Assembly (NCBI GenBank): GCA_965368975.1 | Contig: CBDUPA010000012.1 | Span: 183,049 to 247,048 of the forward strand | DNA from: an uncultured bacterium | Lineage (GTDB): Bacteria; Acidobacteriota; Thermoanaerobaculia; Multivoradales; JAHZIX01 | Length of the DNA stretch: 64,000 nucleotides | Direction of reading: 5' to 3' | Part shown: piece by piece, positions 11,010 through 60,400 of the stretch | Numbering within the stretch: the first letter of the stretch is position 1 | How the letters are laid out: each line of letters begins with the position of its first letter | The notes under the pieces: model-generated | Told to the model about the DNA's origin: nothing | The model's input: only the letters and a program-made list of their open reading frames with translations | The model's database searches: none | Position numbers and translations under genes: made by a program

Positions 11010-37526
<26,517 letters not shown>

Positions 37527-40838: not shown

Positions 40839-43451
40839 TCAGCCACCACCCAGCACCTGCATCTCCGGACCCCGCAGCCCCACCAGCACCGGCTCGCCGT
40901 CTTCGGACACGCGCAGCTCGGCGTACTTGGCGTTGGAGAAGAAGCCCGCTCGACCCTCTTCGAAGAAGAAGCTCTCGATACCCAGGCGCAACTCGTTGCC
41001 GCTGCCCCAACGTTGCAGGCGCTGGCGGTAGTCGAGCAGCTGCTGGTCGGCTTCCAGCGTTGCCGAACCGTCCCAGAAGCTCTCGAATTCGGCGACGCCT
41101 TGGGCGTCGAGTCGCACCACCAGGTGCCCGCGGCGTGGCTGTTCCTGCAGCACTTCCTGCTCGCTGGCGGCTTGGTGCAACTGGTAGTTCAGCACCATGT
41201 AATCGCCCTGCATCAGCGAGCGCGGATCGATGGGACGCAGTTCGAGCAACACTGTGCGGCCGGAGTCGACGATTTGCTGTTTCTGGTAGCTCTGCCAGCC
41301 GGGAATCGCCAGAGCGACGAGGACCAGGGCGGCCAGCGCGCCAAGCTGTGGTGCCGTCCGCGCAGGTCCTGCGTCGGGGTGGCCTTCTCCGGGTGTGCCG
41401 GTTTCGCGCTCGCGTGCCACCAAGCGACGCAACGCGATGGCGGACAGCAATAAGACGAAACCGCTGCCGGTGACCCACAGCGACTTCTCAAGCAGCGGTA
41501 CGTCGAGGCGGTAGTAGAAGTCGAAGAGGAATCCGCCGACGTAGAGCAGGCCGAAGGCCGACAACCAGCGCTCACGACGCCAGAAGCCGAGCACGAGCAG
41601 CAACAGACCGGCGCTGACGCCGGGCACGTCCATGGTCAGCAGGGCGACGACAAGCAGACCGGCGAAGGCGGCGAGGACCGGCGGACGGCTGACCGAGATG
41701 TCGACCTGCCGCAAGGCACGCTGCAGCACAACGAGGGTCAGTGCGGCGAAGGCGAGGGCGAGGATGGGGCGCGGCAGGAAGGTGTCGAGCTGTCCCAAGG
41801 GCCAGGCGTGCAGGGTCGCCAGCAGAGGAATCGCCATGCCGATCGCCAGGCCCAGGCCGAGCGGTCGCCACAGGCTGTGGGTCTCGCCAGCCGGCGCGTC
41901 GGCGAGAGACTTCCTCTGCCACCACAGCGCGATCACGATCGTGGCGACGCCCAGCGCCAGTAGCTGGACGAAGAACGGGTGCAGTTCCAGAGCACCGCAC
42001 AGCCACGTCAACCAGCCGACCAGGGCGAAAGCAGCCGCCAGACGCAGCAGGGGAAGCCGAACGAAGGCCAGTACCGGCAACTGCAACAAGGCCAGGAGCA
42101 AGGGGTGGCTGACATCGCTGCCGCCATCGAGCACCGCGACGAACAGGCACACCTGACCCGTCACTGCGAGAACCCAAGTGAGCTGGACGGCAAACACCGC
42201 CGTCGAGCCACGCATGCCGAGAACCAGGGCACCCAGGTAGAGCAGCGCCCCCAGGACTCCGGCGGCCACGGGGTTGTCCAGCAAGCCGGCGACGCCCAGG
42301 AAGATCGCGAGCACGATCGCGCCGATCCAGGTGCCGAGGCCGACGAAGAGGTGCACGAACCAGGGTGTGTCGCGCGCCACGTCGGAGGAGGTGTCGCTGC
42401 CGTCTAGCGCTTGGAGCTCCGGTTGCGCTGCAGCAGTCTCCTCGGCGTTGCCCTCCACGGGTCGGCTTTCCGTTGGGCTCTCCATTGGCCGAGCCGCGTG
42501 CCGGCGGCGCCAGTCGAGCAACCAGGTCGCCAACAGCCACACCTGGCCACAGATCGCCAGGCCGAGCAGCAGGAAGAAGGCGGTGTCGTCAATTTGAGCG
42601 TACCGCATCAGCTTGCTGATCAACGAGGTCAGCAACACGCACGCTCCCGCCGCCCCGGTGGCGAGCAGCAGCAGGTCCGGGATGCGCCTGCGGTAGGTGG
42701 CATAGATCGCTGCCAGCGCTGCCAGCGCCAGCAGCACGGCGGTGGCGCGCCACGGAAGGCCGCTGCTCGACGTGTCGGTGCCGAAGTTCGACCTGCTGAT
42801 CGCTGTCGCCGCACAACCGACCAGTGACCACAGCCCGAGGCCGGCGGCGGCGTAGATCAGCAGGCTTTGGCGCCCTCCGCGCGGAGCCACGCTGGCGCGC
42901 CGTTCCAGGCTGGCGATGATCAGCGCGTACACCGCCGCCAGTGCTGCCACCACCGGCAGCCCGGGGGCCGAAAACATGCCGGCCTGTGTCACGGACTGGA
43001 AGGTGAACACCCAGGCGGTGAAGTGCAGCAGCGCCAGCCACAGCACCCACCCTCCCTGCAGCCGCGCCAGGGCCGCGAAGCCGGCGAGCACCAGGGTCCA
43101 CAGGGCGTAGATCTCCCAGGCGTCGGCACCGGTTTGGTAGATCTGGCCGTAGAGCGCAATCAGCGGTCCAAAGAGCAGCCCGGCCAGCAAGACCGCCATG
43201 CGGCCGCTCAGCGTTCCGAGACCGAGCACTGCTCCGGTCAGCGCCGAGGCCACCAGCGCCCCGGCCACCAGGCCGAGTCGCTGATTGGGCGTCAGGTCGC
43301 TCCAGTTCGCCGCTACGAAGAACACCACGCCGATGGCCAGCAGCACTGAGCCGAGGCCGAGCAGGTGCAGGCGGGCGAAGCGGTACCAGGCTTCAGCGCC
43401 AGGTGGTGGTGGCAGCGGCGGCGGCGTCAGGGGATCCGGAGAGTCGGACAT
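40839..43451 (-). CDS. Integral membrane DUF2157 / DUF4401-like / GDYXXLXY fusion protein
   Basis: GVVFFVAANW and GQIYQTGAD (DUF2157), many TM helices, FYYRLDVPLLEKS, and LRPIDPRSLMQGDYMVLNY (GDYXXLXY). Confidence 0.88.
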   Translation of the reverse strand: MSDSPDPLTPPPLPPPPGAEAWYRFARLHLLGLGSVLLAIGVVFFVAANWSDLTPNQRLGLVAGALVASALTGAVLGLGTLSGRMAVLLAGLLFGPLIALYGQIYQTGADAWEIYALWTLVLAGFAALARLQGGWVLWLALLHFTAWVFTFQSVTQAGMFSAPGLPVVAALAAVYALIIASLERRASVAPRGGRQSLLIYAAAGLGLWSLVGCAATAISRSNFGTDTSSSGLPWRATAVLLALAALAAIYATYRRRIPDLLLLATGAAGACVLLTSLISKLMRYAQIDDTAFFLLLGLAICGQVWLLATWLLDWRRRHAARPMESPTESRPVEGNAEETAAAQPELQALDGSDTSSDVARDTPWFVHLFVGLGTWIGAIVLAIFLGVAGLLDNPVAAGVLGALLYLGALVLGMRGSTAVFAVQLTWVLAVTGQVCLFVAVLDGGSDVSHPLLLALLQLPVLAFVRLPLLRLAAAFALVGWLTWLCGALELHPFFVQLLALGVATIVIALWWQRKSLADAPAGETHSLWRPLGLGLAIGMAIPLLATLHAWPLGQLDTFLPRPILALAFAALTLVVLQRALRQVDISVSRPPVLAAFAGLLVVALLTMDVPGVSAGLLLLVLGFWRRERWLSAFGLLYVGGFLFDFYYRLDVPLLEKSLWVTGSGFVLLLSAIALRRLVARERETGTPGEGHPDAGPARTAPQLGALAALVLVALAIPGWQSYQKQQIVDSGRTVLLELRPIDPRSLMQGDYMVLNYQLHQAASEQEVLQEQPRRGHLVVRLDAQGVAEFESFWDGSATLEADQQLLDYRQRLQRWGSGNELRLGIESFFFEEGRAGFFSNAKYAELRVSEDGEPVLVGLRGPEMQVLGGG

Positions 43452-44242: not shown

Positions 44243-44273
44243 GGCGGCCAGGTTCGAACCTGGCCGCCTTCTT
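44243..44273 (+). terminator. Probable intrinsic terminator/attenuator hairpin
   Basis: ggcggccaggt-tcga-acctggccgcc perfect stem followed by ttctt. Confidence 0.55.
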
Positions 44274-44376
44274 GGTCGGTGCACTTTCTGCTGTTGAAAT
44301 GAGCTCTCTTGTCACGGTAAGCAACTTAGGATGCACGATGAAGTCAGCCGACGAACTACGGAGGAACCCGTTCAGG

Positions 44377-45663
44377 ATGCATATCAATCGTGACTTGCTG
44401 CTGGCCTTCTATCGAGGAGATATCCGGGCCGAGGAACTGCTCCGGCTGGCGCAGGAGCATTTGCTCTCAGTCTGTCGTCAGTGTCGCGACGAGTTCTCGG
44501 CCTTCTGTGAAGAGCTGAGCGATGAGCACGGCCCGCAGGCACAGCGAACGTCCGAGTCACCGTCGCAGGACGCAGTGCACCGGGCGCAGCAGTGGGAGCG
44601 GATGCTGGATCGGCTACCGCGGGACGTACAGCTCGACAAGGTGCACCGCGCCCGTTCCCGGTTTCGAGGTCCAGCCTTCACCTGCCTGATGTTGCAGCGC
44701 GCCCGAGCCGCGACTCCGGCAGATCCTGGAAGTGCTCTGCACTCTGCCCGTTTGGCGGAAGTCGCGATCTTCCTGGATGAACAGCACGTGCATCTACATG
44801 CTCTGGCGATCGCCTATCAAGCGAATGCACTGCGAGTCTTGGGGCGAGACGAGGAAGCCGCGCAGCTGTTTCTAGCCCTGCGCCTGTGCGCGAGCAGCGT
44901 CACCGACACGCGGACGCTCGCCGAGATCGCGAGTTTCGAAGGCTCGATGGCCATGGATCACCGCCACTTCACCGAAGCCGCGCAGCGCTTCTCGCGCGCC
45001 GTCAGTCTCTTCCACTTGCTCGGTGATGTGGAAGGTGAAGCTCGCAATCTGCTGAAACTGGGATACAACGCCTACTTCTCCGGCCGTCTTCATGCCGCTG
45101 TTCTCGCGACGCAGGAAGCCCTCGACTTGATCGTTGACGACGAGAGCTCCCTCTACTTGGCGGCGCGCCACAATCTGGGCCTGTTCTTGGTGGCTGACGG
45201 AGAAGGCGACGTTGTCGCTCAGATGCTCTGTGAGGACTTGCCGCTCTATCGGAAGTGGGCGAACGAGGCGGCGCATTGGCATACCGCCTTCTCTTGGTTG
45301 TCGGGCAAGGTGGCTTTTGTACGCGGGAACCTGGAACAAGCCGAAGCGCTGTTTCTACAGACGCGTGGTCGGTTCGATCAGGAAGGTAACGAGTACGACG
45401 AGGCTCTTGTGGGGCTGGATCTGCTGCGAGTGTACTTGGTGCAGGGTCGTTTCGAGGACGTGGGGGACTTGGCGGAGTCTCTGTTGGTCGTCTTCGCCCG
45501 CTACCGTTTGACGGCAGAGGCGCAAGAACCATTGGCGGTCTTCGAGGTCGCTAGCCGACAGCGGCGAGTCGGGATGCAGTTGGTGCTGAGACTGGCGTCA
45601 CACCTGGAACAGGGATGCAGAGCGAAGCAGGATGAGCCCTACCAGCCCGAGGTCTTCTGCTGA
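44377..45663 (+). CDS. Tetratricopeptide-repeat protein with an N-terminal HxxxxCxxC (zf-HC2-like) motif
   Basis: EHLLSVCRQC near the N terminus and helical repeats (AYQANALRVLG, AAQRFSRAVSLF, AARHNLGLFL, AEALFLQTR, ALVGLDL). GGAGG upstream of ATG 44377. Alternative start 44338. Confidence 0.75.
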   Translation: MHINRDLLLAFYRGDIRAEELLRLAQEHLLSVCRQCRDEFSAFCEELSDEHGPQAQRTSESPSQDAVHRAQQWERMLDRLPRDVQLDKVHRARSRFRGPAFTCLMLQRARAATPADPGSALHSARLAEVAIFLDEQHVHLHALAIAYQANALRVLGRDEEAAQLFLALRLCASSVTDTRTLAEIASFEGSMAMDHRHFTEAAQRFSRAVSLFHLLGDVEGEARNLLKLGYNAYFSGRLHAAVLATQEALDLIVDDESSLYLAARHNLGLFLVADGEGDVVAQMLCEDLPLYRKWANEAAHWHTAFSWLSGKVAFVRGNLEQAEALFLQTRGRFDQEGNEYDEALVGLDLLRVYLVQGRFEDVGDLAESLLVVFARYRLTAEAQEPLAVFEVASRQRRVGMQLVLRLASHLEQGCRAKQDEPYQPEVFC

Positions 45664-45730
45664 GAGTTGCCTTTCCCAATCCCCCGATTCCGTGATACAT
45701 CCTTCGGCAGACTCAGAAACCGGAGGAAAC

Positions 45731-46159
45731 ATGCCCCGCGACCGAGTGTTCTTGAGCTATAGCCGCGAAGATGAACAGTTCATGAAGGAAGCCCGCGTGC
45801 AATTGAAGGCGGCCGGGATCGACACGTTCATTGACCAGGAGATCCCGATCGGCGCCAAGTGGGAGGATCACATCCACACTGCCCTCACCGACGCCCGCGT
45901 CGCGTTCTTGCTGGTGAGTGCCCACTTCGTGACCTCGGATTTCATCCGTAAGGTCGAACTGCCCGCGATTCTGCCGGCGGCTGAGAGTCAGGACTTGACC
46001 ATCTTCTGGGTCCAGGTCAGCGCGACTCCGATTCCCAAAGACATCGACCGCTACCAAGCCGCGCACCGCAATCCGGCGCTCGATCAGCTGAGCAAGCCAG
46101 AGCGGAACCAGGTATGGGCGGACATCTGTAGGAAGCTCGCCCCGCTCTTCGGCCCTTAG
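45731..46159 (+). CDS. TIR domain protein (probably the frameshift-separated N terminus of the downstream kinase)
   Basis: GGAGG RBS. RVFLSYSRED, TFIDQEIPIGAKWEDHI and LLVSAHFVTSDFIRKVELP, with the catalytic Glu present. Confidence 0.85.
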   Translation: MPRDRVFLSYSREDEQFMKEARVQLKAAGIDTFIDQEIPIGAKWEDHIHTALTDARVAFLLVSAHFVTSDFIRKVELPAILPAAESQDLTIFWVQVSATPIPKDIDRYQAAHRNPALDQLSKPERNQVWADICRKLAPLFGP

Positions 46160-46344
46160 CCGCCCCGCCGTCGGACACACCCGAGACGACGGGGCCTTCT
46201 GGGTCTACCGCAGCAGAGAATCCGCCTTCCGAGCTGGAGCTGGCCTACGCGCGTCGTGAAGAGATCCTCGCCGACGGTGGCGATACGACGCAGGTCGACA
46301 CCGAGATCCTCGGCATCAAGCGAGACATCCGAGAGGGCGGCCGC

Positions 46345-48042
46345 GTGCATGCTGGCGACTTGCTGCAGGACGGGCGTTACAAGCTGTGGAACGTGATCGG
46401 CAGCGGTGGCTTTGCCACGGTGTGGCGAGCCTATGACCGGAAACGCCAGCAGCCCGTCGCGATCAAGCTTCTCCACGGCCAGTACGCCCAGGACCGTTCC
46501 CGCCGCGAGCGCTTCTTCCGCGGTGCCAAGCGGATGGCTTCGCTGCAGCATTCCGGGATCGTGAAGGTGTTGGATGAAGAACAGGTGGACGACGGCCACT
46601 ACTTCTTCGTCATGGAATACGTCGACGGGCAGGACTTGCATCGAGCCTTGCGCGATGGCCACGTCGGGCCGGAGCAAGGCCGTGAGCTGGTGCTGCAGGT
46701 GGGCGAGGCGCTGGCGTATGCGCACGAGCAGGGCATGATCCACCGCGACGTCAAGCCCGCGAACATTCTGCTGGATGCACAGGGGCGCCCGAAGCTGACG
46801 GATTTTGATCTCGTGCGAGCACAGGACACGACCGGCGGTACCCGCACGGGAGCGATCGGCACGTTCGTCTATGCCGCGCCGGAGCAGCTGGAGAACGCCA
46901 AGAACGTCGACGAGCGAGCAGATGTCTATGGGTTGGGCATGACGCTGGTGGCGTTGCTCCATGGGAAGCCGTTGCCAGCGACAGTGATGCGGAACCTCGG
47001 CAAGCTGATCGACGCGCTTGACTGCGCCAAGCATCTGCGCCGAGTGCTGCACCGGGCGGTGGACTGGGAACTGGATCAGCGCTACGAGAGCGTCGGGGAG
47101 TTCTTGCAAGCCCTGAAACCCGCACCACCCCGTCCCGACCCTCCACCGCCACCCATTCAGGTCGAGCCGGTGGCGGCAGAGCCCGAGGTCCCTCGAGGCT
47201 CGAGCATCGTGCGCCTTGCTGCCGACCAGCCGGCCGCAGGCACGCTGTGGGAGGGACCGCTCGGGATGCGTTTTCGCTACGTGCCGGCGGGGGTGTATGT
47301 CGTCGGGAGTCCGGAGGACGAGCCCGGGCGGTTCGGCTGGGAGTGGCTGCCGCACGAGGTCGAGCTGACGCGTGGCGTCTGGATGGCGGAAACACCGGTG
47401 ACGCAGGCGCAGTGGGGGCAGCTGGTGCCAGACAATCCGTCTCGTTTCTCCGACAACCGTTGGGAGCACCCGGTCGAGCGGGTGAACTGGTACGAGGCCG
47501 TGGCCTTTGCTAATCGGCTTTCCGTGGAGGCCGGACTTGAGCCCTGCTACTCGTTGAACGGGCAGAAAGGTGACCTGGGAAAGGACTTCAAGTGCGTGTC
47601 GGCCGAACTGCTGCTGCCGCTGCGCAGTGGCTTCCGGCTGCCGACGGAGGCGGAGTGGGAGATCGCTGCGCGCGCTGGGACGGCCGGGGCACGCTATGCG
47701 GAGAACCTGGACGATATCGCTTGGTACAGGGAGAACAGCGGCCAGCGGACGCATTCGGTAGGTCGCAGGCAACCCAATGCCTGGGGTCTGCACGACCTGT
47801 TGGGCAACGTCAGGGAGTGGGTGGGGGATAGATTCAGCGGCGACCAGCCAGCAACGCCGCGTGTGGATCCACAGGGTCCTGAGGACGGCCCGGCCCGCGT
47901 GTGTCGCGGTGGTTCGTGGGGCGCCCATGCGCGGTACGTCCGTGCGGCCTACCGCGACGGCGACCAGCCTGGCTACCGCTACGGCTCCCTGGGCTTCCGC
48001 CTGTCTCGAGGTCCCCAGCCAGGAGGGGCGGAGCCCCGGTAG
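46345..48042 (+). CDS. Ser/Thr kinase - FGE-sulfatase (C-lectin) protein; frame is open and homologous back to 46132
   Basis: GSGGFATVW, VAIK, HRDVKPAN, DFD and YAAPE, a Pro-rich linker, then FRLPTEAEWE, NAWGLHDLLGNVREW and RGGSW...LGFRL. Confidence 0.88.
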   Translation: MHAGDLLQDGRYKLWNVIGSGGFATVWRAYDRKRQQPVAIKLLHGQYAQDRSRRERFFRGAKRMASLQHSGIVKVLDEEQVDDGHYFFVMEYVDGQDLHRALRDGHVGPEQGRELVLQVGEALAYAHEQGMIHRDVKPANILLDAQGRPKLTDFDLVRAQDTTGGTRTGAIGTFVYAAPEQLENAKNVDERADVYGLGMTLVALLHGKPLPATVMRNLGKLIDALDCAKHLRRVLHRAVDWELDQRYESVGEFLQALKPAPPRPDPPPPPIQVEPVAAEPEVPRGSSIVRLAADQPAAGTLWEGPLGMRFRYVPAGVYVVGSPEDEPGRFGWEWLPHEVELTRGVWMAETPVTQAQWGQLVPDNPSRFSDNRWEHPVERVNWYEAVAFANRLSVEAGLEPCYSLNGQKGDLGKDFKCVSAELLLPLRSGFRLPTEAEWEIAARAGTAGARYAENLDDIAWYRENSGQRTHSVGRRQPNAWGLHDLLGNVREWVGDRFSGDQPATPRVDPQGPEDGPARVCRGGSWGAHARYVRAAYRDGDQPGYRYGSLGFRLSRGPQPGGAEPR

Positions 48043-48155
48043 AAGCGGAGCCCGGAGGGCGGAGCGCAGGGGAGGCCGGGGACGGGGACCGCAAGGAGCG
48101 GCGGCGGAGCCGCCAGCGAGTCGGAACCCGGCCAAGGCCGGGGGTGGGGGGGCGC
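47072..48155 (+). repeat. ~1.1 kb direct repeat, copy 1 (linker + FGE domain + 3' tail)
   Basis: Aligns to 50272-51366 at an offset of 3200. The first ~200 bp are identical by eye. Confidence 0.9.
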
Positions 48156-48202
48156 CGCCGAATGCTGGTACCGTGCGCTACACTTTCCACATTGTGTGCG
48201 CT

Positions 48203-48367
48203 ATGCAAGATGCTGACCGCGTCGAACCCAAGCCGCCTACCGAACTCGACGAGCACGACCGCGAACTGATCCGCTACATGCTCAGCTTGACGCCCGGCGA
48301 GCGGCTGCGCTACATCCAGAGCTTTGCCAACGGCGTCGAGAAGCTGAAGCATGCCCGTCGGGTCTGA
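48203..48367 (+). CDS. Small protein (54 aa), putative partner/antitoxin of the downstream nucleotidyltransferase
   Basis: MQDADRVEPKPPTELDEHDRELIRYMLSLTPGERLRYIQSF, carrying a D..LI...L.LTP.ERL motif. Overlaps the start of the next gene. Confidence 0.65.
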   Translation: MQDADRVEPKPPTELDEHDRELIRYMLSLTPGERLRYIQSFANGVEKLKHARRV

Positions 48368-48839
48368 CTTTCTCGACCTCCTCCGCGTGCTCGTCGACCA
48401 CGAGGTCGACTTCATTGTTGTCGGCGGGATTGCGGCTGTGTTGCACGGTTCTCCCGTCGTCACAGCGGATGTCGATGTGCTGTTCGACGCCGAGGCGGCC
48501 AACATCCGAAAGCTGAGTGCGGCACTCAGCCAGATTGACGCGCACTACTTCGATCCTGCCGGGCGGCGGATTGCGCCGGATGAGGGCAAGTTGCAGAGCT
48601 TCCGGTTGAACTTGCTACAGACCCGGCTGGGACGGCTCGACGTTTTGCGCACGATTGGACGAGAGCAGACGTATGCAGATCTCTTCGAGCGTACCGTGGA
48701 ATTTGAAGTGGACGACTTGCGCTTGCGAGTCCTCGATCTGGATGCGTTGATCGAGGTCAAGGAAGTCGCGGGGCGGGAGAAAGATCTTTACGGTTTGACT
48801 TTCTTGCGCAGCCTGCGAGACGAAGTCGACGGCGGTTAG
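48351..48839 (+). CDS. Nucleotidyltransferase (Pol-beta superfamily, DUF6036/AbiEii-like)
   Basis: FIVVGGIAAVLHGSPVVTADVDV (GG...T.D.D) and C-terminal LIEVKEVAGREKD. Confidence 0.8.
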   Translation: MPVGSDFLDLLRVLVDHEVDFIVVGGIAAVLHGSPVVTADVDVLFDAEAANIRKLSAALSQIDAHYFDPAGRRIAPDEGKLQSFRLNLLQTRLGRLDVLRTIGREQTYADLFERTVEFEVDDLRLRVLDLDALIEVKEVAGREKDLYGLTFLRSLRDEVDGG

Positions 48840-48869
48840 ATACCTCCATACCTTTTAGACGACAACACA

Positions 48870-51251
48870 ATGGCAACTACATCTTCACGGGGTGGAGCCC
48901 CGCCACGAGTCTTCATCTCGTATAGCCACGACTCCCAGGAGCATCGTGGCCGTGTGCTCGTGTTGTCGAATCGCCTGTGCGCGGACGGGGTCGACGTCCA
49001 CCTCGACCAATACGAGGTTTCGCCGCCGCAGGGTTGGCCGCAGTGGATGCTCGACCAGATCGAAGAATCTAACTTCGTCCTGGTGGTGTGTACCGAGGTG
49101 TATCACCAGCGCTTCCGAGGCAAGGGGGCGGGGCGGGGCGTCAAGTTTGAAGGCGCGGTGCTGACGCAGACGGTGTACGACGCGGATAGCCAGAATGACC
49201 GGTTTATCCCAGTTCTTTTCTCGTCGGAGGATGCGGATCACCGGCCGGTGGTGTTGCGTGGGGCGTCGTTCTACGTGCTGGACAAGGACTACGAGGCTTT
49301 GTATCGGCACTTGACCGGGCAATCGGCGACGCCGAAGCCGGAGCTGGGTACGGCGCGGGTGCTACCGCCGCGCGAGCCGCCCGAACACAGGGTGGTCGAG
49401 GATGTTGAGGAGGCAGGTGAGGAGCCACCCTCCGAGCTGGATGAGCTGAAAGCGATACGAGAAGCCTTGCGTGAGCGCGGGCGGGCTACGGCGCTGCTCG
49501 ATCACGAGATCCTGGAATGGAAGCGTGAAGAGCGGGACGGCAGTCAGCTTCATGAACGCGCCGAACTGCTCGGCCGCTACAAGCTGCGCTCGATCTTGGG
49601 GAGTGGTGGTTTTGCAACCGTATGGCGGGCTTGGGACAAAGTGGAAGGTTGCCTGGTTGCTGTCAAGGTCTTGCACGGCCAGCACCGCCAGGATAGAACC
49701 CGTCGAGACCGCTTTTTCCGTGGTGCCGCCAGGATGGCTTTGCTGGAGCATCCGGGGGTTACCAAGGTGCTGGAGCCGCAGCTAGAAGATCAAGGGCAGT
49801 GCTTCTTCGTCATGGAGTACCTGCCGGGCGGAGACCTGCGCCGAGCCGTCTTGAGCGGCGAGGTCGACGAGGCGCGTGCGGTGGAGGTGATTCGCGAAGT
49901 CGGAGAGGTCTTGGCCTATGCCCACGGTCAAGGGGTCATCCATCGGGACGTCAAACCGGCCAACATCCTGTTGACGGCGGACGGCCGGCCGAAGCTAACG
50001 GATTTCGATTTGGTGCATGCGGTCGATACGACCGGCGGTACCCGCACTGGAGCCCTTGGGACCTTTCTGTATGCTGCTCCCGAACAACTACACAGTGCCA
50101 AGGGAGCCGACGACCGGGCGGACGTCTACGGCTTGGCGATGACTCTGGCTTTCGCATTGCACGGAGATGAGCTGCCGCTGACCATTCTTCGTTCCCCCGA
50201 AATCCTTGTCCGGTCCTCGGGCTGTACTTCGATAGTGCGCGAAGCTGTGCTCAGGGGGATCGAGTGGGACTTGGATCAGCGCTACGAGAGCGTCGGGGAG
50301 TTCTTGCAAGCCCTGAAACCCGCACCACCCCGTCCCGACCCTCCACCGCCACCCATTCAGGTCGAGCCGGTGGCGGCAGAGCCCGAGGTCCCTCGAGGCT
50401 CGAGCATCGTGCGCCTTGCTGCCGACCAGCCGGCCGCAGGCACGCTGTGGGAGGGACCGCTCGGGATGCGCTTTCGCTACGTGCCGGCGGGAGTGTACGT
50501 CGTCGGGAGTCCGGAGGACGAGGCAGAGCGGTTTGACCGGGAGTGGTTGCCGCACGAGGTCGAGCTGACCCGTGGCCTCTGGATGGCGGAGACGCCAGTG
50601 ACGCAGGCACAGTGGAGCCAGTTGGTGCCCGAGAATCCGTCTCGTTTCTCCGACAATCGTTGGGAGCATCCAGTCGAGAACGTGAGCTGGTACGAAGCTG
50701 TGGCCTTTGCGAATCGGCTTTCCGAGGAGGCCGGACTCGAGCCCTGCTACTCGTTGAACGGGCAGACGGGTGAGCTGGGGAAGGACTTCGAGTGTGCGTC
50801 AGCCGAGTTGCTGCAGCCGCTGCGCAGTGGCTTCCGGTTGCCGACGGAGGCGGAGTGGGAGATCGCCGCGCGTGCTGGGACGGCTGGGGCGCGCTATGCG
50901 GAGAACTTGGATGAGATCGCTTGGTACCGAGAGAATAGCGGCAAGCGGACGCATTCGGTAGGTTGCAGGCAACCCAATGCTTGGGGTTTGCACGACATGT
51001 TGGGCAATGTCTGGGAGTGGGTGGGGGATAGATTCAGCAGCGACCAGCCAGCAACGCCGCGTGTGGATCCACAGGGTCCTGAGGACGGCCCGTCCCGCGT
51101 GTCCCGCGGTGGTTCGTGGTCCACGGACGCGCAGTACGTCCGCGCGGCGTACCGCGGCGGCGGCGAGCCTGGCTACCGCAGCGACTTCCTGGGCTTCCGC
51201 CTGTCTCGAGGTCCCCAGCCAGGCGGGGCGGAGCCCCGGAACGAGTCCTAG
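48870..51251 (+). CDS. SEFIR/TIR - Ser/Thr kinase - FGE-sulfatase (C-lectin) multidomain protein
   Basis: RVFISYSHDS, DVHLDQY, GWPQWM and GVKFEG (SEFIR). Kinase motifs GSGGFATVW, HRDVKPAN and DFD. C-terminal FGE domain. No TM. Confidence 0.92.
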   Translation: MATTSSRGGAPPRVFISYSHDSQEHRGRVLVLSNRLCADGVDVHLDQYEVSPPQGWPQWMLDQIEESNFVLVVCTEVYHQRFRGKGAGRGVKFEGAVLTQTVYDADSQNDRFIPVLFSSEDADHRPVVLRGASFYVLDKDYEALYRHLTGQSATPKPELGTARVLPPREPPEHRVVEDVEEAGEEPPSELDELKAIREALRERGRATALLDHEILEWKREERDGSQLHERAELLGRYKLRSILGSGGFATVWRAWDKVEGCLVAVKVLHGQHRQDRTRRDRFFRGAARMALLEHPGVTKVLEPQLEDQGQCFFVMEYLPGGDLRRAVLSGEVDEARAVEVIREVGEVLAYAHGQGVIHRDVKPANILLTADGRPKLTDFDLVHAVDTTGGTRTGALGTFLYAAPEQLHSAKGADDRADVYGLAMTLAFALHGDELPLTILRSPEILVRSSGCTSIVREAVLRGIEWDLDQRYESVGEFLQALKPAPPRPDPPPPPIQVEPVAAEPEVPRGSSIVRLAADQPAAGTLWEGPLGMRFRYVPAGVYVVGSPEDEAERFDREWLPHEVELTRGLWMAETPVTQAQWSQLVPENPSRFSDNRWEHPVENVSWYEAVAFANRLSEEAGLEPCYSLNGQTGELGKDFECASAELLQPLRSGFRLPTEAEWEIAARAGTAGARYAENLDEIAWYRENSGKRTHSVGCRQPNAWGLHDMLGNVWEWVGDRFSSDQPATPRVDPQGPEDGPSRVSRGGSWSTDAQYVRAAYRGGGEPGYRSDFLGFRLSRGPQPGGAEPRNES

Positions 51252-51366
51252 TGCGAAGCGGAGCCCGGAGGGCGGAGCGCAGGGGAGGCCGGGGACGGGG
51301 ACCGCAAGGAGCGGCGGCGGAGCCGCCAGCGAGTCGGGACCCATCCAAGGCCGGGGTGGGGGGCGC
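50272..51366 (+). repeat. ~1.1 kb direct repeat, copy 2
   Basis: Aligns to 47072-48155. Confidence 0.9.
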
Positions 51367-51476
51367 GCTGCAACTTCCCTCCCCCCGTCCCGTTCCTAAC
51401 CCCCAGCCGCACACCCCCCGCGATAGGCTCGCTCTCGACGGCATTCCACCGTCCTTGACGTATGAGGTACTTGGCG

Positions 51477-54400
51477 ATGGCTGGCAAATCCGCGACGGCG
51501 AAACCGTCTTTCTACCCACTCTCTCCGCTGCAACAGGGCATGCTCTTCCACTGCCTGGAGGCACCGGGGACAGGGCTCTACCACGAGCAGACGACTCTGC
51601 TCTTCGACGGGCAGCTCGACCTCGGCGCGTTCGAGCAGGCGTGGCGGCACGTCATCGAGCGGCACGAGGTGTTGCGCACGTCGTTCGCGTGGGAGGGGTT
51701 GAAGCAGCCGGTGCAGGTGGTGCGGACAGGGATGAAGGTGCCGTTGCACGTGGTGGATGCGCGACGCTGGGCTTTGACGGAGGAGAACGGGGCGGCGCAC
51801 CTGCTGCGGCGGGTGGCGCGGGCGGAGCGGGGGTTGGGGTTCGAGCTGACGCGGGCGCCGGTGTGGCGCTTGACGTTAGTGCGCCTGCCTGTGGAGAGGG
51901 CACCGGTTGCGAGGATACCGGCTGAGGAGGAGCGCCAGCGGTGGGGGCTGCTGTGGTCGTTCTCGCACCTGCTGCTCGACGGCTGGTCGGTGCCGCTGCT
52001 GTGGCACGAGGTGTTTTCCGTGTACCAGGCCCAGGTAGCAGGGACATCGGTGGTGGGAGCGCCTGTGCCCGGGTTGCCGGTGGTGCCGCCGTTCCGGCGC
52101 TACATCGCGTGGCTGTACCGGCAGGATACGTCGAAGGCGCAGAGTTGGTGGACGCGGAAGATGGCTGGACTGCGACGGCCGTTGCGCATGACGGAAGCCT
52201 GGGGTGAGCTGGACGCCGGGTCGGCGGCTGCAGCAGCAGGGGGCCTGGAACCGTCCCGGGCGCCGACGTTGCAGGCGCATCGGCTGGTGCCGGCGGCGGC
52301 GGTGTCTACGGTGCGGGCGTGGGGACGTGAGCAAGGGTTGACGCTCAACACACTGGTGCAGGGGGCGTGGGCGTTGCTGGCGTCGCGCTACGTGCAGCAC
52401 GACGACGTGGTGTTCGGCATCGTGGTGTCGGGCCGGCCGTCGCAGCTGCCGGGCGTCGAGCGCATGGTGGGGATGTTCATCAACACCGTGCCGCTGCGTG
52501 TGCAGGTGCCGACGGCGGGCAGCGGGCGTACGGTGGGCGCGTGGGTGAGCGAGCTGCAGCGGCAGGCAGGCGAGATGCAGCGCTTCGAGCACACGCCGCT
52601 GGCGCAGATCCAGAGCTGGAGTGAGTTGCCTGCGCGCGAGGCGTTGTTCGATTTCCTGCTCGTCTTCGAGAACCAACCCCGGGCGCAGCAGCCCCAGGAG
52701 AAGGATAGAGCTGGACTGCGGGCGGAGCTCTTGACCGGCGAGCCGGTGAGCAATTACCCGCTGACGCTGGCGGTGACGCCGCCGCTCGACGATACGCATG
52801 CGCTGCGTTTCCACCTGACAGCGCACCGTGGGCGGGTCGAAGAGAGCGCCATGGAGCGTCTGCTGGGGCACCTGGAGACGCTGCTGCTCGGCCTGGGTGA
52901 GGTGCCCGAGACGCCGCCGGCGTGGTTGCCGATGTTGACCAGCTCGGAGCGGAGGCAGTTGCTAGAGTTGGGGTCGGCGCCAGTCGGGCCTGCGGGCGAT
53001 CCAGTGCCAGCCGATCCAGTGCCAGCCGATTCAGTGCCAGCCGATTCAGTCACAGACATCGTCGAGCGCGTCTTGGCGGTGGCGGCTGAGCGGCCGGAGG
53101 CGGTCGCGCTGAGCTTTGCTGCCGTGGAGGGGCCGGACCAGGTTCTGACGTATGGCGCGCTCGATGCGGCGAGTGCGGCCCTGGCAGCGCGGTTGCGCGC
53201 GGCTGGGGTTGGTTCGGCGGAAGTGACGGTGGCGTTGCAGCTACCGCGCGGGGTGGAGCTGGCGGTGGCGGTGCTGGCGGTGCTGCGCGCGGGCGGGGCG
53301 TACGTGCCGCTGGACGTCGAGCAGCCGGCGTCGCGCTTGGCGTTTGTTCTTGAGGATTGTGGGGCGTCGGTGGTGGTGGGGGAGGGGGACCTGGCGGGTT
53401 TTGACGGACAGGTGGTGAAGGTGCATCCGAGGTTGTTCCGTTCTGGTGTAGGGGCACCCCCGTGTGGGTGCCCTCCCGGGATGGGGGACGGATCCGGATG
53501 CGGCTGTGCCGCAGGGCAGGCACATGGGCCTGCCCCTACCCAGAAAGATTGGCCCCCTGGCGCCCTCGCCTACCTCATCTATACCTCCGGTACCACCGGT
53601 ACACCCAAGGGGGTCGAGGTCCGTCGACGCAACCTCTCCGCCTTTCTCGACGCTGTCGTCCGCACCTTCGACCTCGGTGCTGATGAACGCTTACCCTGCC
53701 TGGCGCCGCATCCGTTCGACATCTTCGGTTTCGAGCTTTTGGCACCCTGGTGCAGCGGTGGCACGGCGGTGCTGGTGCCCTTGACGCCGATCCTCGATCT
53801 CGACGACCTGGTCCGCCGCTTGCCGGGGTTCTCGCGCGTTCACGCGGTGCCGGCATTGTGGGCCCAGCTGCTTGACCGGCTGGAAGCGTCCGGCGATCTC
53901 GACGGCTTGCAGCGCTTGCGCACGGTATTCGTGGGCGGAGACGTGGTGCCGCCGGCCCTGCTGCGACGGTTGCGGCAGCTCTTGCCGAGGGTCGAGACGC
54001 GGGTGCTGTACGGGCCGACGGAGGCGACGGTGCTCAGCAGCAGTCGAGCGCTGGTGCCGGGGGCCGAGGGCGATGCGCCGCTGGCGTCGACGCCGGCGGG
54101 AGGCAGCCTGGGACGGGCGCTGCCGGGGGTGCGACTTAGCGTGCGCGACCGGCTGGGTCGACGGCTACCGCTCGGCCTGGTGGGTGAGCTGGTGATCGAG
54201 GGCGCGGGCGTGACGCGCGGCTATCGCGGGCGCCCGGGGCAGACGGCGGAGGTGTTCGTGCCGGCGCCGCGGGTCGGGGGCGCATGGACCGAGGGCGTAC
54301 AAGTCGAGGGAACGCGCGCCTACCGCAGCGGCGACCGGGTGCGTTGGCGCGTCGGCGGTACGGCGGCGGAGCTGGAGTTTCTGGGGCGCGTGGATCAGCA

Positions 54401-57400
54401 GGTCAAGGTGCGCGGCTTCCGCATCGAGCCGCGCGGCATCGAGGCGGTGCTGGAGGCGCGGGCGGAGGTCGAGCAAGCGGTGGTGGCGGTGCGGTCGTCG
54501 CAGCCGGGGATGGGAGGCGATGCGGAGCTGGTGGCCTGGGTGGTGGGGGAGCAGGTGTCGGTCGATGTGCTGCGTGCCGACCTCGCCGAGCAACTCCCCA
54601 CCTACATGGTGCCGACGCGCATCGACGTCCTCGACGCCTTCCCCTTGACGGCGCACGGCAAGGTGGACCGCAAGGCGCTGCTGGCGCTTCCCGGTGCCGG
54701 GGGGCGTTCCTCGGCGAAGAAGAAGAGCAAATTGCGCCTGCGGGGCCGCACACGCGACGCGGAGACTGCGGCCGAAACGGATGTGCCGCCGCTGGCGCGC
54801 CAGCTGTGCGAGCTGTTCGCCGAGGTGCTGGACGTCGAGGTAGTGGGGCCGCACGACGACTTCTTCCAGCTCGGCGGGCACTCGGTGCTGGTGATGCGCC
54901 TGGCCGGGTTGCTGCGTGCACGCCTGCAGCGGGATCTGCCGCTGCGCGCGATCTTCGATGCGCCGACGGCGGTCGAGCTGGCGGCGGTGTTGGAGGCACC
55001 CGGTGCAGTGCCCGAGCCAGCGGCGGGATCAGCTGCGGGGCCAGCTCCAGGGCCAGTGATCGAGCGGCCAGAAACGCCTGCCGAGCCGGCCGTACGTCCG
55101 TCTTTGACGCCACGTCCGCCTTTGACAAGGCAGCCACGTCCGGAAGATGCAGCGCACGGCATCCCGCTGTCGTTTGCCCAGGAGCGGCTGTGGTTCTTGA
55201 CCCAGCTGGACCGCGACAGCCCGCTCTACAACGTACCGATGGCGCTGGAGCTGCGCGGCACGTTGGACGTCGGGGCGTTCGTGCGCGCGGTGCACGGCGT
55301 GGTGCGGCGACACGAGGTGCTGCGGACCAGCTACCCGACGGTGGCGGGGCGACCGCGTCAACGCATTGCCAGTGTTGCGGAAGGCGCTACCGGAGTCGCG
55401 CACTGGGCGGGCCTGGCGTATCTCGACCTGAGCGGCCTGGGTTTCGAGGCGGCACGGGACGAACGCGGACGCCTGGCGCGGGTCGAGGCGGTCCGGCCGT
55501 TCGATTTGCAGCGCGGGCCGGTGATGCGGGTGCTGTTGGTGCGTGGGACGGAAGTCCACACGCTGCTGTTGACCCTGCACCACATCGCCAGCGACGGTTG
55601 GTCGACCGGCGTCTTCGTGCGCGAGTTCGCGACGCTCTACAAGGGGGAAACGCTGCCGCCGCTGCCGGTGCAGTATGCCGACTACGCCCTGTGGCAGCGC
55701 GGCTGGCTGGACGAGCGCGCGCTGGCGGCCGAGGTCGAGCACTGGCGTGGGTTGTTGTCGGGTTCCTCAACGAGTGGTGGCGGACTGCCGGCACTCGACC
55801 TGCCGACCGACCGTCCGCGGCCGCCGCTGCAGACGCACCGTGGCGCCTTCGTGCCGCTGACCCTGCCGGCGCCGCTGGTCGCCAGCCTAGAGCAGCGGGC
55901 ACGGGAGTCCGGCTCGACGTTGTTCATGGTCCTGCTCACCGCCTTCCAGGCCTTGCTCGGCCGTAGCGCCGGCCAGCGGCGCCTGGCGGTCGGCACGCCG
56001 GTGGCGGGGCGTCACCACGAGCACCTCGACGGCCTGATCGGCTTCTTCGTCAACACGCTGGTGCTGGCGGCCGACCTGCGCGCAAAGGGAGCGGGAGGTG
56101 AGTCGACCCTCAGCGAGCCGACCTTCCGTGAACTCCTGCGCCGGTCGCGCGCTGCTGTGCTCGACGCCTACGACCACCAGGACGTGCCCTTCGAGCGCCT
56201 GGTGGCCGAGCTGGTGCCACAGCGAGACCTGGCGCGGCCGGCATTGTTCCAGGCCATGTTCGCGCTGCAGACGGCGCCGTCCGAGACGCTGCGTCTACCC
56301 GGTTTGACCCTGGCCCCCGTCGCTGGCGGTGCCGGCCATGCCAAGTTCGAACTGACCTTGACGCTGACGCCCATCCCCTCGGGGCCGGCTGCTGGCACCT
56401 CTGCAGGAATACTGGTGGGGAGCCTGGGTTTCAATACCGACCTCTTCGACGTCACCAGCATGGCGCGCCTGGGCGGCCGGCTGCGCGCTCTGCTCGCCGC
56501 CGTGGCCGCCGATGCGGACGCGCGTCCCGCCCTCGTGCCGCTGCTCGGCGCCGCCGAGACGCACCTGCTGCTGCACGAATGGCGCGCCGTCCGGCGAGCC
56601 TCGACGCAGGCTACCGACGATCTGGCGGCGCGCATCCGTGCCCATGGCCGGCGTCAGCCGGACGCGGTAGCGGTGCGCCAGGTGGGTGCCGGCGTCGAGG
56701 TGCCGGTAGAACTGAGCTGGCGGACCTTGCTGCACCGTGCGGAATCCCAAGCCGCGTCGCTGCAAGCTCTGCCCGACTGGGTCCCGGAGGCTCGCGTCGC
56801 CGTCTGCCGTCCGCGCTCGGTGCAGGTGGTGGTCGATTGGTTGTCGGTGCTGCTGGCCGGTGGCGCCTACGTGCCGCTGGATCCGGTGCATCCGGCGGAG
56901 CGGCTGCGCTTGCAGGTGGAGGATGCCGGAGCGGTTTTCGTTCTAGGGGAGAGGGCGCAGGTCAGGACTTCCTCGGTCGAGGATGTGCCGGTTCTCGCGC
57001 GTCACGTTGGTGGTAGATCGCAAGATGGGACAGCAGAGGACGTGGATGGTGCTTCGTATGCGCAACGAGCCGGGGGACGGGAGGGGTGTAGGGGCGCACG
57101 GATGTGCGCCCTCCCCGGTACCGCCCTCGCCTACGTCGTCTACACCTCCGGCTCCACCGGCAAGCCCAAGGGCGTGGCCGTGTCGCGCCGTGCCTTGGGC
57201 GCGATGGTCGACTGGAAACTGCGCATCGACGCGCTCGCTCCTGGCGACCGCGTCGCCTTCGCCTCGGGCCTGAGCTTCGACGCCGCCGCTACCGACGTGT
57301 GGCCGGCGCTAGTGGCCGGGGCGACGGTGTGCTTGCCCACCGCTACCGAAGAAGCCGAGCCGGCGCGCATGCTGGACTGGGTGCTGGCGGGGCGCTTGCA

Positions 57401-60400
57401 CGTGGTGCGCCTGGGGACGCCGATGGTCGAGGCGATGCTCGATCGGCCGCTGCCGGCGTCGGCGAAGCGGACCTTGCGCACCCTGGTGACCGGCGGCGAC
57501 CGGCTGCGCAAGGTGCCACAGGGCACCTGGCGTGGCGTGCTGTTCAACCGCTATGGACCCTCCGAAGCGACGGTGCAGGTGAGCCGCTACCGGGTGGCGG
57601 GCGGACGCGGGCAGAGCGGTTTGCCGACGCTCGGCCGGCCGGTGGACGGCACGGCGCTGTGGATCCTCGACGCGCGCCAGCGGCTGCAGCCGATCGGCGT
57701 GCCGGGCGAGCTGGTGATTGCGTCGATCAAGTTGGCCCGCGGCTACCTGGGCCGGCCCGCGCTGACCGCCGCGGCGTTCCGGCCGAATCCCTTCGCCCTG
57801 CCAGGCGCCGATCCGGAACTGGACTCCGGCTCGCGCATCTACCGCAGCGGCGACCTGGCGCGCACGCTGGAGGATGGCGAGCTGGAGTTCCTCGGCCGGA
57901 TCGATCACCAGGTGCAGCTGCGCGGCTACCGGGTGGAGTTGGGCGAGATCGAGACCGTGTTGACGGCGCATCCGTCGGTGGCGCAGGCGGTGGTGCTGCT
58001 GCGCGGTGGCCTGCCGGGAGGCGAGGGGCTGGTGGCGTATGTGGAGACGCCCCAGCAGGAGAAGAGGCAGGAATTGGAGGCAAAGCTGCGCGACTACCTG
58101 CGCGAGCGCCTGCCGGTTCACATGATCCCGGCGGCCTTCGTGCTGCTCGACGCCATGCCGGTGACGCCCAACGGCAAGTTCGACCGCACGGCGCTGCTGG
58201 CTCTTTCGCTGCCGGGCTCGCAAGAGCTGTCGCCACGAGATGCAGCCGCGCAAGAAGTACCTGGCACCTACTCCTCGCCCACCTCCGCGCCGGGCCTGGA
58301 ACGGCGCCTGATCGACATCTGGCGCCGCGTGCTCGGCGTGCCCCACGTGCGCCGGACCGACAACTTCTTCGACCTCGGCGGGCACTCGCTGCTGCTGATC
58401 GAGCTGCAGCATCACGTGCAGGCCGATCTCGGGGTCGAAGTGCCGGTGGTCGAGTTGTTCCAGTTCCCCACGGTCGCGACGCTGGCGGCGCACCTGGGGG
58501 GTGGGGAGACCATGAGGGTCGAGCGGGACCTCGAGCGCGTGACGCTGGTCGAGTCACCGGTGCCGACAGAAGTCGGAGGCGACGCGGTCGGCGGCGACGT
58601 GGCGATCATCGGCATGGCGGGACGCTTCCCCGGGGCCCCCGACCTCGACGCCTTCTGGCAGGTCCTGCGCGATGGTGTCGAGACGGTGTCGCGGTTCACG
58701 CGCGAAGAGTTGCTGGCCAACGGGGTCCGCGTGGAGGAACTGGAGGACCCCGACTACGTGCCGGCGCGCGGGCGGCTGTCCGAGCTCGAACTGTTCGATG
58801 CCAGCTTCTTCGACTACGCGCCGCGCGAGGCGCAGGTGCTGGACCCGCAGTTCCGGCTGTTCCTGGAACTGGCCTGGCACGCGCTCGAAGACGCTGGCTA
58901 CGACCCCGGACGCGCGCGCAAGCCGGGCGGGCCGGGACGCGTGGCGGTGTTCGGTGGTGGCGCGGCGGGGACCTATCGCTGGCACTTCGGGGCCCACCCG
59001 GAAGTGGTGGCGGCGGTCGGTTCGATGCAGGTCAACTACGCCACCAACCCGCAGTTTCTACCCACGCAAGTGGCCTACAAGTTGGGGCTCGAAGGCCCCG
59101 CCATCGATGTCCAGACCGCCTGCTCGACGGGCCTGGTGTCGCTCCACTTGGCTTGCCAGGCACTGGCCGACGGCAGCTGCGACATGGCGCTGGCCGGCGG
59201 CGTGGCGGCGGACACGCTGGGGGTGCGCGGCTACAGGTACCAGTACGGCGGCATCTCGGCCAAGGACGGGCATTGCCGTTCCTACGACGCCGAGGCCACC
59301 GGCTCGGTGATGAGCAATGGCGCCGGCATGGTGCTGCTCAAGCCGCTGGCCGCCGCGCGCCGCGATGGCGACCGCGTGCTGGCGGTGGTGCGCGGGTCGG
59401 CGCTCAACAACGATGGTCACCGCAAGGTTGGCTACACGGCGCCGAGTGTCGAGGGGCAGGCCGAGGCGATCCGCGCGGCGCATCGACGCGCGGGCGTGCC
59501 GGCGTCGACGATCCAGTTCGTCGAGGGGCACGGCAGCGCCACGCCGCTGGGCGATCCGGTGGAGGTGCAGGCGCTCAAGTTGGCTTTCGGAGACGCCGCG
59601 AACGGCAGGCCGATCGTGCTCAGCTCGGTCAAGAGTAACCAGGGCCACGCCGACACCGCCGCTGGCATCGCGGGCCTGCTCAAGACGGTGCTCGCCCTGC
59701 GTCACCGGCAGCTACCGCCGACCGTCCACTTCCAGCAGCCGAATCCACAGATGGGGCTCGACAGCAGCTGCTTCGAGGTGAGCGGCGAGCTGACGGAGTG
59801 GCCCGAGAACCGCGATGCCGACGGCACACCCCTGCCGCGGCGCGCCGGTGTCAGCTCATTCGGTATCGGCGGTACGAACGCGCACGTCGTCTTGGAGGAA
59901 GCATCGGTAGAAGCTGCACCGGTGGAAGCAGACCAGGTCCTCGATTCCTGGCGTCTGCTGGTGCTGTCGGCGCGCAGTGAGGCGTCGCTGGCGTCTTTGC
60001 AGGCGACGTGGGCGCAGGCCTTGGACGGCGTCGAGGAGGCAGCTCGGACCGGCCCTGCTTGGAATGACTGGTCCTACACCGCGCTGGTCGGCCGTGCTGG
60101 CTTCGAGCTGCGCCGGGCCTTCGTCGCGCGCGATGGTGCGGATGCCGCCGCGGTGCTGCGCGGTGACGCGCCAGGACGCCTGCTCGAAGGGACCGTCGAG
60201 CGTGGAGCCCGTCCGTCCGTCGCCTTCCTGCTGGCCGGTGTCGGCGATCAGTACCCGGGCATGGCCGCCGGCCTCTACCACCACGAGCCCGTCTTCCGTG
60301 CCGCCCTCGACCGCTGTGCCGACCTGCTGGCGTCGCGGCTCGACGTCGACTTGCGGCAGGTTCTCTTTCCAGAGGGCGTTGACGCCTATCTCACCGCCCC

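Follow-up and report, generated by a model that had tools for sequence, protein, structure and literature searches.

Two neighboring genes, A and B, in a 64,000-nucleotide stretch of DNA from an uncultured bacterium of the Acidobacteriota (G000:C12:183049-247048; GC content about 60-73%), hereafter referred to as the window, encode a TIR or SEFIR domain, a Hanks-type kinase, and a C-terminal FGE/C-lectin domain. The FGE ends of these two genes and of a third gene on contig C14 of the same genome, each about 32 codons in length, are probably the variable regions (VRs) of a diversity-generating retroelement (DGR) and would have been diversified by mutagenic retrohoming from one shared template. 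The comparison of gene A, gene B, and the C14 paralog is what makes the putative VR pattern compelling. Homogenization of these ends among old paralogs appears to be very recent, and the ends nevertheless vary at codon positions 1 and 2.

Three-Way Comparison of the Gene Ends

A permissive blastn search of the whole genome, with the gene ends as queries, recovered the C14 copy at 81% identity over 242 nt. This copy forms the 3' end of a gene on the minus strand (G000:C14:31548-33887; L029:2549-4837) that encodes a caspase-FGE protein of 762-779 aa with a membrane segment (Peptidase_C14, 6.3e-11), and this gene carries the same 3' variable-region cassette as genes A and B. An open reading frame (ORF) for a TPR/winged-helix regulator is located upstream of the caspase gene on the same strand.

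In the upstream part of the FGE domain, 102 of the 205 third codon positions are different in genes A and C14. Within the segment 47881-47988 of gene A, the corresponding count is 1 of 36, with differences at 18 of the 72 first and second positions, and in the last 17 codons, which make up the 3' flank, 1 of 17 third positions differs. The Fisher P values were determined to be 7.4e-9 for the third-position contrast (1/36 vs 102/205) and 0.0024 for positions 1-2 against position 3 within the variable region. Because only 1 of 36 third positions differs and 15 of the 17 flank codons show no difference, the last homing or homogenization event that involved genes A and C14 would be very recent relative to the divergence of the paralogs.

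The core chosen for the three-way analysis is 117 nt in length and corresponds to positions 47887-48003 of gene A. Among the three copies, 27 positions of the core vary and 90 are invariant, and 22 of the 27 variable positions are codon positions 1 or 2. Both of these positions are often altered in one codon, as in GCC/TCC/ATC, GGC/TCC/TTC, TAC/CTC, TAC/AGC, and TCC/TTC/AAC. There are 17 differences between genes A and C14 in the core, 1 of which is at a third position; 14 are at positions that are adenines in the template repeat (TR) of a homologous retroelement from the related genome G005, which is described below.

Comparison of Genes A and B

From the first to the last variable base, the variable region of gene A extends over 47893-47987 and that of gene B over 51093-51187, both on the plus strand. 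When the 32 codons at 47893-47988 were compared with those at 51093-51188, 14 were found to differ, and 12 of the 14 differences are nonsynonymous. Seven of the differing codons are NNC/NNC pairs altered at positions 1-2 only, and five also change position 3 (TGT/TCC, GCC/ACG, CAT/GAC, CGT/CGC, and GCC/GCG). The 23 bases that follow, CTGGGCTTCCGCCTGTCTCGAGG, are the same in both genes. The codon counts and the invariant segment given in the preliminary description of this DNA were thus reproduced exactly, as were the peptides quoted in it, and the translations of 47893-48020 and 51093-51220 agree.

The two variable regions are part of a common tract of 1108 nt with 90.6% identity (47062-48155 vs 50262-51368); the kinase parts of the two genes are 70% identical. 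Upstream of the variable region, 57 of the 256 aligned tract codons differ, 21 of them nonsynonymously, and at one place in the tract 32 codons in a row are unchanged. In the variable region, differing codons of all kinds are in mild excess (14/32 vs 57/256; Fisher P = 0.0096), and nonsynonymous ones are in stronger excess (12/32 vs 21/256; P = 3.3e-5). For the A/B pair alone, the excess is mainly in nonsynonymous change and less so in total change.

A Homologous Retroelement in a Related Genome

A DNA search was made of 60 genomes from the same family or order, none of them from the same genus. Matches were obtained in 15 of the 60, and the best non-self identity was 74-76%. Contig C102 of G005 (L027), a genome from the same family, contains a complete DGR that can be aligned to the window without gaps, at 74-76% identity. 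This element encodes, in order, a trypsin-like peptidase, a MoxR-type AAA ATPase, a tandem-FGE target, and the reverse transcriptase (RT), followed by the TR at 8712-8830 and a short FGE-only target. The mismatches between the TR and the three variable regions of this element fall at TR adenines in 15/17, 15/17, and 15/18 cases. The G005 gene for the RT (L027 7645-8463) has one in-frame TAG in an otherwise open frame of 371 aa; either the gene was inactivated recently or the codon is an assembly error, the genome being in 630 contigs.

In the ungapped alignment, the adenines of the G005 TR coincide with 16 of the 25 positions that vary in the window and with 6 of the 80 that are invariant (P = 2.6e-8). 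Over the full 117-nt core, 18 of the 27 variable positions are at G005 TR adenines. The 5' edge of homogenization in the window is also the 5' edge of the TR-VR homology in G005, and in G005 the match between TR and VRs is lost immediately past the counterpart of ...CCGAG. The G005 TR itself is too diverged to be a plausible template for the window.

Adenine occupies 1 of the 90 invariant core positions. At the same 90 positions, nine FGE paralogs from this genome have 4-12 adenines, with a mean of 7.1 (Poisson P = 0.0066). These nine controls are the rows, among the 20 compared, that fall outside any variable-region family; the rows dropped were the three focal variable regions, four rows of known elements (the VR and the TR of C16 and two rows from C9), and the orphan-pair rows C1:69585, C13:178325, and two on C7. 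Calculated against bulk composition, the depletion has a P value of 8.6e-7, a figure that was downgraded after the motif-matched control was made.

Conserved 3' Flank and Hairpins

Each variable region is followed by a conserved flank that resembles an initiation of mutagenic homing site (47989-48024 in gene A, plus strand). The flank is the same in genes A, B, and C14 except at 48023-48024, and its sequence beyond about CTCGAGG is probably not templated. The hairpin GGGGC-GGA-GCCCC is found on the plus strand at 48025-48037, where it overlaps the last codons of gene A, and at 51225-51237, 3' of the variable region of gene B, where the stem is extended to 6 bp by a C-G pair at 51224/51238. The genome holds four exact copies of this 13-mer, all of them beside the three variable regions. 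A second hairpin on the same strand, GGCGGC-GGA-GCCGCC, is located at 48100-48114 in the duplicated 3' tail of gene A and at 51313-51327, 3' of gene B. For comparison, a genome-wide count over 14.25 million positions gave 410 hairpins that combine a GGA loop with a stem of 5 bp or more, and 49 of these have a GCGGAGC core.

The stem was found to covary across 21 VR-adjacent segments from 11 genomes, where the third pair is GC in 10 segments, CG in 4, AU in 1, and UA in 1. The covariation score was 0.24 compared with 0.119 in shuffled controls; 0 of 500 shuffles scored as high, and slid controls reached at most 0.122. When the 87 nt after each variable region were folded whole, the result was no better than that obtained with shuffled sequences (z = -0.35 and +0.86). 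A stem-GGA(T)-stem hairpin is also present just after the GFRL codons of two unrelated, distant FGE genes, L028 (from a metagenome contig) and L026. FGE ends of this class may thus carry a stem-GGA-stem hairpin quite generally.

Architecture of Genes A and B

Gene B (48870-51251, plus strand) encodes an intact fusion of 793 aa, recognized with Pfam and PADLOC models, in which a SEFIR/TIR domain (residues 13-148) is followed by a Hanks-type kinase (residues 237-434) and an FGE-sulfatase domain (residues 538-778). The Pfam scores are 3.8e-17 (63.4 bits) for SEFIR, 1.1e-13 (52.2 bits) for TIR_2, 3.5e-36 for Pkinase, and 1.4e-47 for FGE-sulfatase, and the match to the last of these families extends to the C-terminus. 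Residues 6-200 match the PADLOC bSEFIR model PDLC03957 with an E-value of 1.5e-50.

Gene A is present in two pieces on the plus strand. The first is a TIR-domain ORF of 175 aa (45632-46159) that ends at a frame-2 stop; it matches Pfam TIR_2 (2.3e-15, 57.6 bits) and the PADLOC models SAVED_TIR (9.4e-17) and ThsB (6.5e-8). The second encodes a Hanks-type kinase and an FGE/C-lectin domain in 565 aa (46345-48042; Pkinase 1.2e-44, FGE-sulfatase 1.9e-40) and is in a different frame. A linker remnant at 46132-46344 is open in the kinase frame 5' of the first start codon, GTG at 46345, and its frame-1 translation, "...ENPPSELELAYARREEIL...", resembles the gene B linker, "...EEPPSELDELKAIREAL...". Because the kinase frame is open from about 46132 and the linker is gene B-like but without a start codon of its own, gene A looks like a fusion that was broken by a one-base frameshift, either real or an assembly error. 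The preliminary description had presented both genes as TIR/SEFIR-kinase-FGE fusions, and this is the case for gene B, whereas gene A is read in two frames.

The kinase motifs VAIK/VAVK, HRDVKPANILL, a DFD variant in place of DFG, and APE are readable in the translations. Both kinases match PADLOC models for kinase-based defense systems such as PD-T4-6, although this is a generic kinase similarity. Neither the 565-aa piece of gene A nor gene B has a transmembrane segment (the maximum hydropathy over 19 residues is 1.17 and 1.25, respectively), and the FGE domains of A and B are therefore predicted to be cytosolic. The family names of the TIR and SEFIR domains suggest an NADase or other NAD-related output.

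Proteins with the SEFIR/TIR-kinase-FGE arrangement are common in metagenomes. Among 8000 candidates scored, 2197 proteins matched at E<=1e-20, many of them with all three Pfam families. The closest full-length metagenome relative among the matches listed covers 98% of gene B at 49% identity.

A third SEFIR-kinase-FGE paralog (37530-40049, plus strand; Pfam SEFIR, Pkinase, and FGE), located 6 kb upstream of gene A, has a transmembrane segment (hydropathy 2.97) and has 7 adenines at the 90 cassette-invariant positions. Its C-terminus has no VR-level match to A, B, or C14, is unique, and belongs to no variable-region family. This paralog serves as an internal contrast that shows what an untargeted C-terminus looks like.

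Other Retroelements of the Genome

The assembly consists of 59 contigs and was scored as 99.3% complete. Five RVT_1 matches were identified in it. Two, which exceed the cut-off with 418.6 and 413.4 bits, are maturases of group II introns, and three are short DGR-type RTs on contigs C16, C9, and C15. Two of the three DGR-type RTs have adenine-biased TR/VR pairs that are unrelated to the variable regions of the window; no template was detected beside the C9 RT in the scan.

The element on C16 (G000:C16:91583-97250) is complete, with an FGE target, Avd (82 bits, over the cut-off), a template at 92586-92716, and the RT. Its variable region at 91951-92081 has 27 mismatches to the template, 81% of which are at TR adenines. 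A scan of 120-nt windows for AAC-rich segments recovered, among FGE-like sequences, only this C16 template; the rest of the output was noise. The AAC-rich segment C16:97461-97580 was considered and rejected as the template for the nearby FGE end. A large ORF with a P-loop (GHPGSGKS) follows the C16 element, and the FGE end at C16:97059, about 3.3 kb after the start of that ORF, disagrees with the C16 template at non-adenine sites.

The second element exists in two near-identical copies (G000:C15:4717-8325, L005; G000:C9:138246-141854, L004), both with RTs that score 47.9 bits and with FGE targets on either side. The C15 template (7183-7341) was matched to variable regions on C15 and C9 with 11 and 9 mismatches, of which 91% and 100%, respectively, are at adenines. 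The template was detected on C15 only, and its match to the C9 variable region is an in-genome example of possible service in trans.

Two further pairs of FGE ends resemble variable regions. The ends at C1:69481-69760 and C13:178198-178365 are 86% identical over 147 nt, with differences at NNC codons, identical flanks, and unrelated upstream sequence. The ends C7:36793 and C7:38650, within 36700-36960 and 38561-38806, are 1.86 kb apart on one strand, are 79% identical with an identical 3' tail, and show codon-level differences of the same kind. No template for either pair was found in the assembly, and the variable-region-like ends without a template in the assembly number seven.

Proposed Mechanism and Evidence against It

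In the explanation that we prefer, one shared template repeat would have overwritten all three gene ends by mutagenic retrohoming. An RT would copy the template RNA and misread its adenines, and the resulting cDNA would replace the variable region, with the conserved 3' flank and the small GC hairpin guiding the replacement. About 14-16 codons would be randomized at positions 1-2, and these codons would specify the face with which a TvpA-like domain binds its ligand. In genes A and B this cytosolic domain would be wired to a Hanks-type kinase and a TIR or bSEFIR domain, a layout like that of the putative antigen sensors of conflict systems. The retrohoming, the sensing of ligands, and a kinase or NAD-related output are functions that we infer. 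The homogenized synonymous sites, the change focused on positions 1-2, the match to the G005 TR adenines, and the TvpA-like FGE domain support the DGR-like variable regions proposed in the preliminary description.

Several observations weigh against this explanation. The 27 variable positions include five at the third base of a codon, four of which are private to gene B. Nine of the 27 are off the G005 TR adenines, and six of the nine are specific to gene B, with four of the six at third positions; part of the divergence, mainly in gene B, would thus not be due to adenine mutagenesis, or else gene B saw a different version of the template. The adenine depletion is only modestly significant relative to the motif-matched paralogs (P about 0.007). 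The coincidence with TR adenines is not fully independent evidence since the codons at which templates set adenines are those for ligand contact, and selection would favor variation at the same codons. Gene A is split into two frames. The segments used for the hairpin analysis were picked by best stem, and the pairing counts are biased upward for this reason. The hairpins have 5-6 bp stems and 3-nt loops and are shorter than those of phage DGRs, for which Guo et al. describe 7-10 bp stems with GRNA tetraloops located 4-34 bp after the VRs (PMC3240598).

The searches for a template fall on the same side. A pattern that was built from the 90 invariant core positions and tolerated as many as 15 substitutions matched only the three variable regions on the two strands of the assembly, and so did a pattern of 129 positions with up to 22 substitutions. 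Permissive blastn of the assembly gave no match beyond the three variable regions, and exact and 1-mismatch motif searches of the genome returned no template and only the same three. No template was found in the GTDB species genomes or the JGI metagenomes, which yielded two unrelated FGE genes: L026, the single match of the GTDB scan, and L028, the single JGI match to the 5' half of the pattern, the two-motif pattern having given 0 matches there. The three DGR-type RTs of the genome are about 33% identical to the G005 RT, of which there is no ortholog, and there is only one gene for Avd in the genome, at C16. The search for a template and an RT that had been proposed in the preliminary description therefore recovered DGR-type RTs, one of them with Avd, and no matching TR; none of these RTs is linked to the variable regions of the window in a complete element of RT, TR, and VR. 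That description would have been refuted by the absence of a TR or RT from the genome or its close relatives. One half of this applies, since no matching TR was found in the genome; the relatives searched included none of the same genus.

Alternative Explanations

The three gene ends may be relics. This is a sub-case of the explanation given above that denies any present service in trans: diversification would have taken place in the past, the template and RT would since have been lost, and the three ends would be frozen and drifting by ordinary mutation. Such a history is quite possible, somewhat short of an even chance. No cognate template was found in a genome scored as 99.3% complete, there is no ortholog of the G005 RT, the C1/C13 and C7/C7 pairs are also without a template in the assembly, and gene A is broken. 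Because these two pairs are likewise without a template, the loss of cassettes may be common in this genome. The six private off-adenine changes in gene B, four of them at third positions, are what drift after the last homing event would be expected to produce. Conversely, the single third-position difference in 36 between genes A and C14 argues that the last homing was very recent, and the 3' recognition flank and the hairpins are intact in all three copies. An assembly of 59 contigs can also miss small or mobile contigs, and Doré et al. describe one locus whose intact RT and TR were present only in structural variants seen by long reads (PMC10907252). The chances are roughly even that the cassette is located outside the assembly and that it was lost, leaving frozen variable regions.

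Active service in trans by the RT on C16, C9, or C15, with the template on an unassembled or unbinned piece of DNA, is rather unlikely. Three DGR-type RTs are present and two have TR/VR pairs that look to be in working order; the recognition flank and hairpins are intact; and the diversification of remote targets in trans by the RT and TR of another locus is reported by Doré et al. (PMC10907252). None of the public sequencing runs listed shares half or more of the sequence words (the best share is 0.13), no RNA run was among the matches, and the runs contain relatives only. In four of these runs, at a likeness setting of 80%, the contigs of related organisms, which are 80-90% alike and are not from this strain, break around both variable regions, and the joints link the two variable regions, a result that does not bear on hypervariability in this strain. 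Against service by these RTs, the templates at C16:92586-92716 and C15:7183-7341 pair with other variable regions, the RTs are only about 33% identical to the G005 type, a template located apart from every RT would be unusual, and the assembly holds no matching sequence. The preliminary description had proposed that these sensors are served in trans. That proposal was not borne out by the 59-contig assembly, where the local templates belong to other variable regions; because there is no matching TR and the RTs are not orthologous to the G005 enzyme, service in trans is at most something that we infer.

A bolder form of the preferred explanation places one template on a non-assembled element, such as a plasmid, a prophage, or a cassette carried by part of the population, from which it would rewrite three sensors, two of them cytosolic and one membrane-anchored, with TIR plus kinase, bSEFIR-kinase, and caspase effectors. 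We consider this to be improbable. If it were true, then, given the C1/C13 and C7/C7 pairs, the diversifying machinery would be accessory, shared, or transient and the targets would be core, which would amount to a population-level division of labor in the diversification of immune sensors.

It is very improbable that no retroelement was ever involved and that the cassette was spread by duplication or gene conversion and then diversified by point mutation under selection at the ligand-contact codons: genes A and B are 3.2 kb apart, the 1.1 kb tract with its unchanged 32 codons shows that conversion or recent duplication acts here, the total codon change is only mildly raised, five differing codons also change at the third position, and no template was found in the assembly, but 18 changes at positions 1-2 against 1 at a third position (A/C14) are not expected of ordinary mutation, nor are the repeated double changes at positions 1 and 2 with C kept at position 3, a single adenine in 90 invariant positions would be left unexplained, the homologous stretch of G005 is demonstrably template-driven, and the non-cassette paralog at 37530-40049 shows an untargeted C-terminus.

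Neighboring Genes

The segment between genes A and B (48204-48839) looks like a two-gene insert in the style of a toxin-antitoxin pair. A small ORF (MQDADRVEPKPP...) overlaps the start of an ORF for a DUF6036/DUF2204-like nucleotidyltransferase (48351-48839, plus strand; Pfam DUF6036 1.8e-4, under its cut-off). Neither piece matches any PADLOC model, and the nucleotidyltransferase-like ORF lies outside the variable-region system. A weakly TPR-like ORF of 463 aa (44272-45663) is located just upstream of the TIR ORF of gene A, and the minus strand at 40839-43451 encodes a membrane protein of 869 aa with DUF2157, DUF4401, and GDYXXLXY domains. A giant ORF of >4179 aa (51462-63998) begins 210 nt 3' of gene B and runs off the window; its first 1500 residues are modules of a nonribosomal peptide synthetase (Condensation, AMP-binding, and PP-binding).

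Significance and Comparison with Known Systems

Diversified C-lectin proteins that are fused to kinase, TIR, or caspase domains have been proposed to be bacterial antigen sensors. The locus described here adds a compact, NTPase-less version made up of a bSEFIR or TIR domain, a kinase, and a variable lectin, and it shows the same variable cassette joined to three types of effector, in both cytosolic and membrane-anchored proteins. Seven variable-region-like ends of this genome are without a template in the assembly, and targets of this sort will escape any survey that requires an RT, a TR, and a VR to occur together. Proof at the level of sequencing reads is needed before targets without a template can be called served in trans.

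The best match of the gene B FGE domain in the PDB is TvpA, the DGR variable protein of Treponema denticola (2Y3C, E = 2.3e-40), and the alignment spans the variable stretch. Both have the FGE subtype of the C-type lectin fold, the variable region is at the extreme C-terminus, and the RGGSW...LGFRL segments are aligned. TvpA is a lipoprotein encoded beside its own RT and TR. It has no kinase or TIR/SEFIR domain, whereas here the domain is fused to cytosolic signaling domains and no template was found. The bSEFIR defense protein is said, in work from 2022 by Millman et al., to act by NAD+ depletion. The match of gene B to model PDLC03957 is limited to the SEFIR part of its 412 positions, and in gene B this part is joined to a kinase and a variable lectin.

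The G005 element on C102 shares a homologous variable region and template with the window, along with the same GFRL-(S/V)RG 3' flank followed by a GGA-loop hairpin. Its targets are tandem-FGE and FGE-only proteins beside a MoxR-type ATPase and a trypsin-like peptidase, and not kinase/TIR fusions.

A 2020 study reports an N-terminal Hanks-type kinase joined to a C-terminal C-lectin as the commonest target, together with orthocaspase and TIR-like variants. The paralogs are dispersed in the genome, and activation of remote targets is attributed there, as a suggestion, to cis elements close to the 3' end (PMC7517822). Relative to the targets described in that study (PMC7517822), the genes examined here are from a genome of about 70% GC that is not a cyanobacterium, the bSEFIR/TIR domain is N-terminal to the kinase, and the remote copies have no template in the genome.

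In Thiohalocapsa PB-PSB1 and other multicellular bacteria, Doré et al. (2024) describe C-lectin variable regions on TIR, kinase, and CHAT/caspase-like proteins (PMC10907252). The variable positions there are almost exclusively codon positions 1-2, and the variable regions of one locus have no TR match in the reference genome (PMC10907252). Most of the loci in that work have templates and diversification was demonstrated with population reads, whereas the pattern reported here was read from the assembled sequence and no template was found; the main target classes there are STAND NTPases and MoxR/VMAP ternary systems, whereas genes A and B encode NTPase-less SEFIR/TIR-kinase fusions (PMC10907252). 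Kinase-, TIR-, and caspase-fused C-lectin targets, targets in trans, and variable regions without a template are thus already known, and the locus described here is of that kind.

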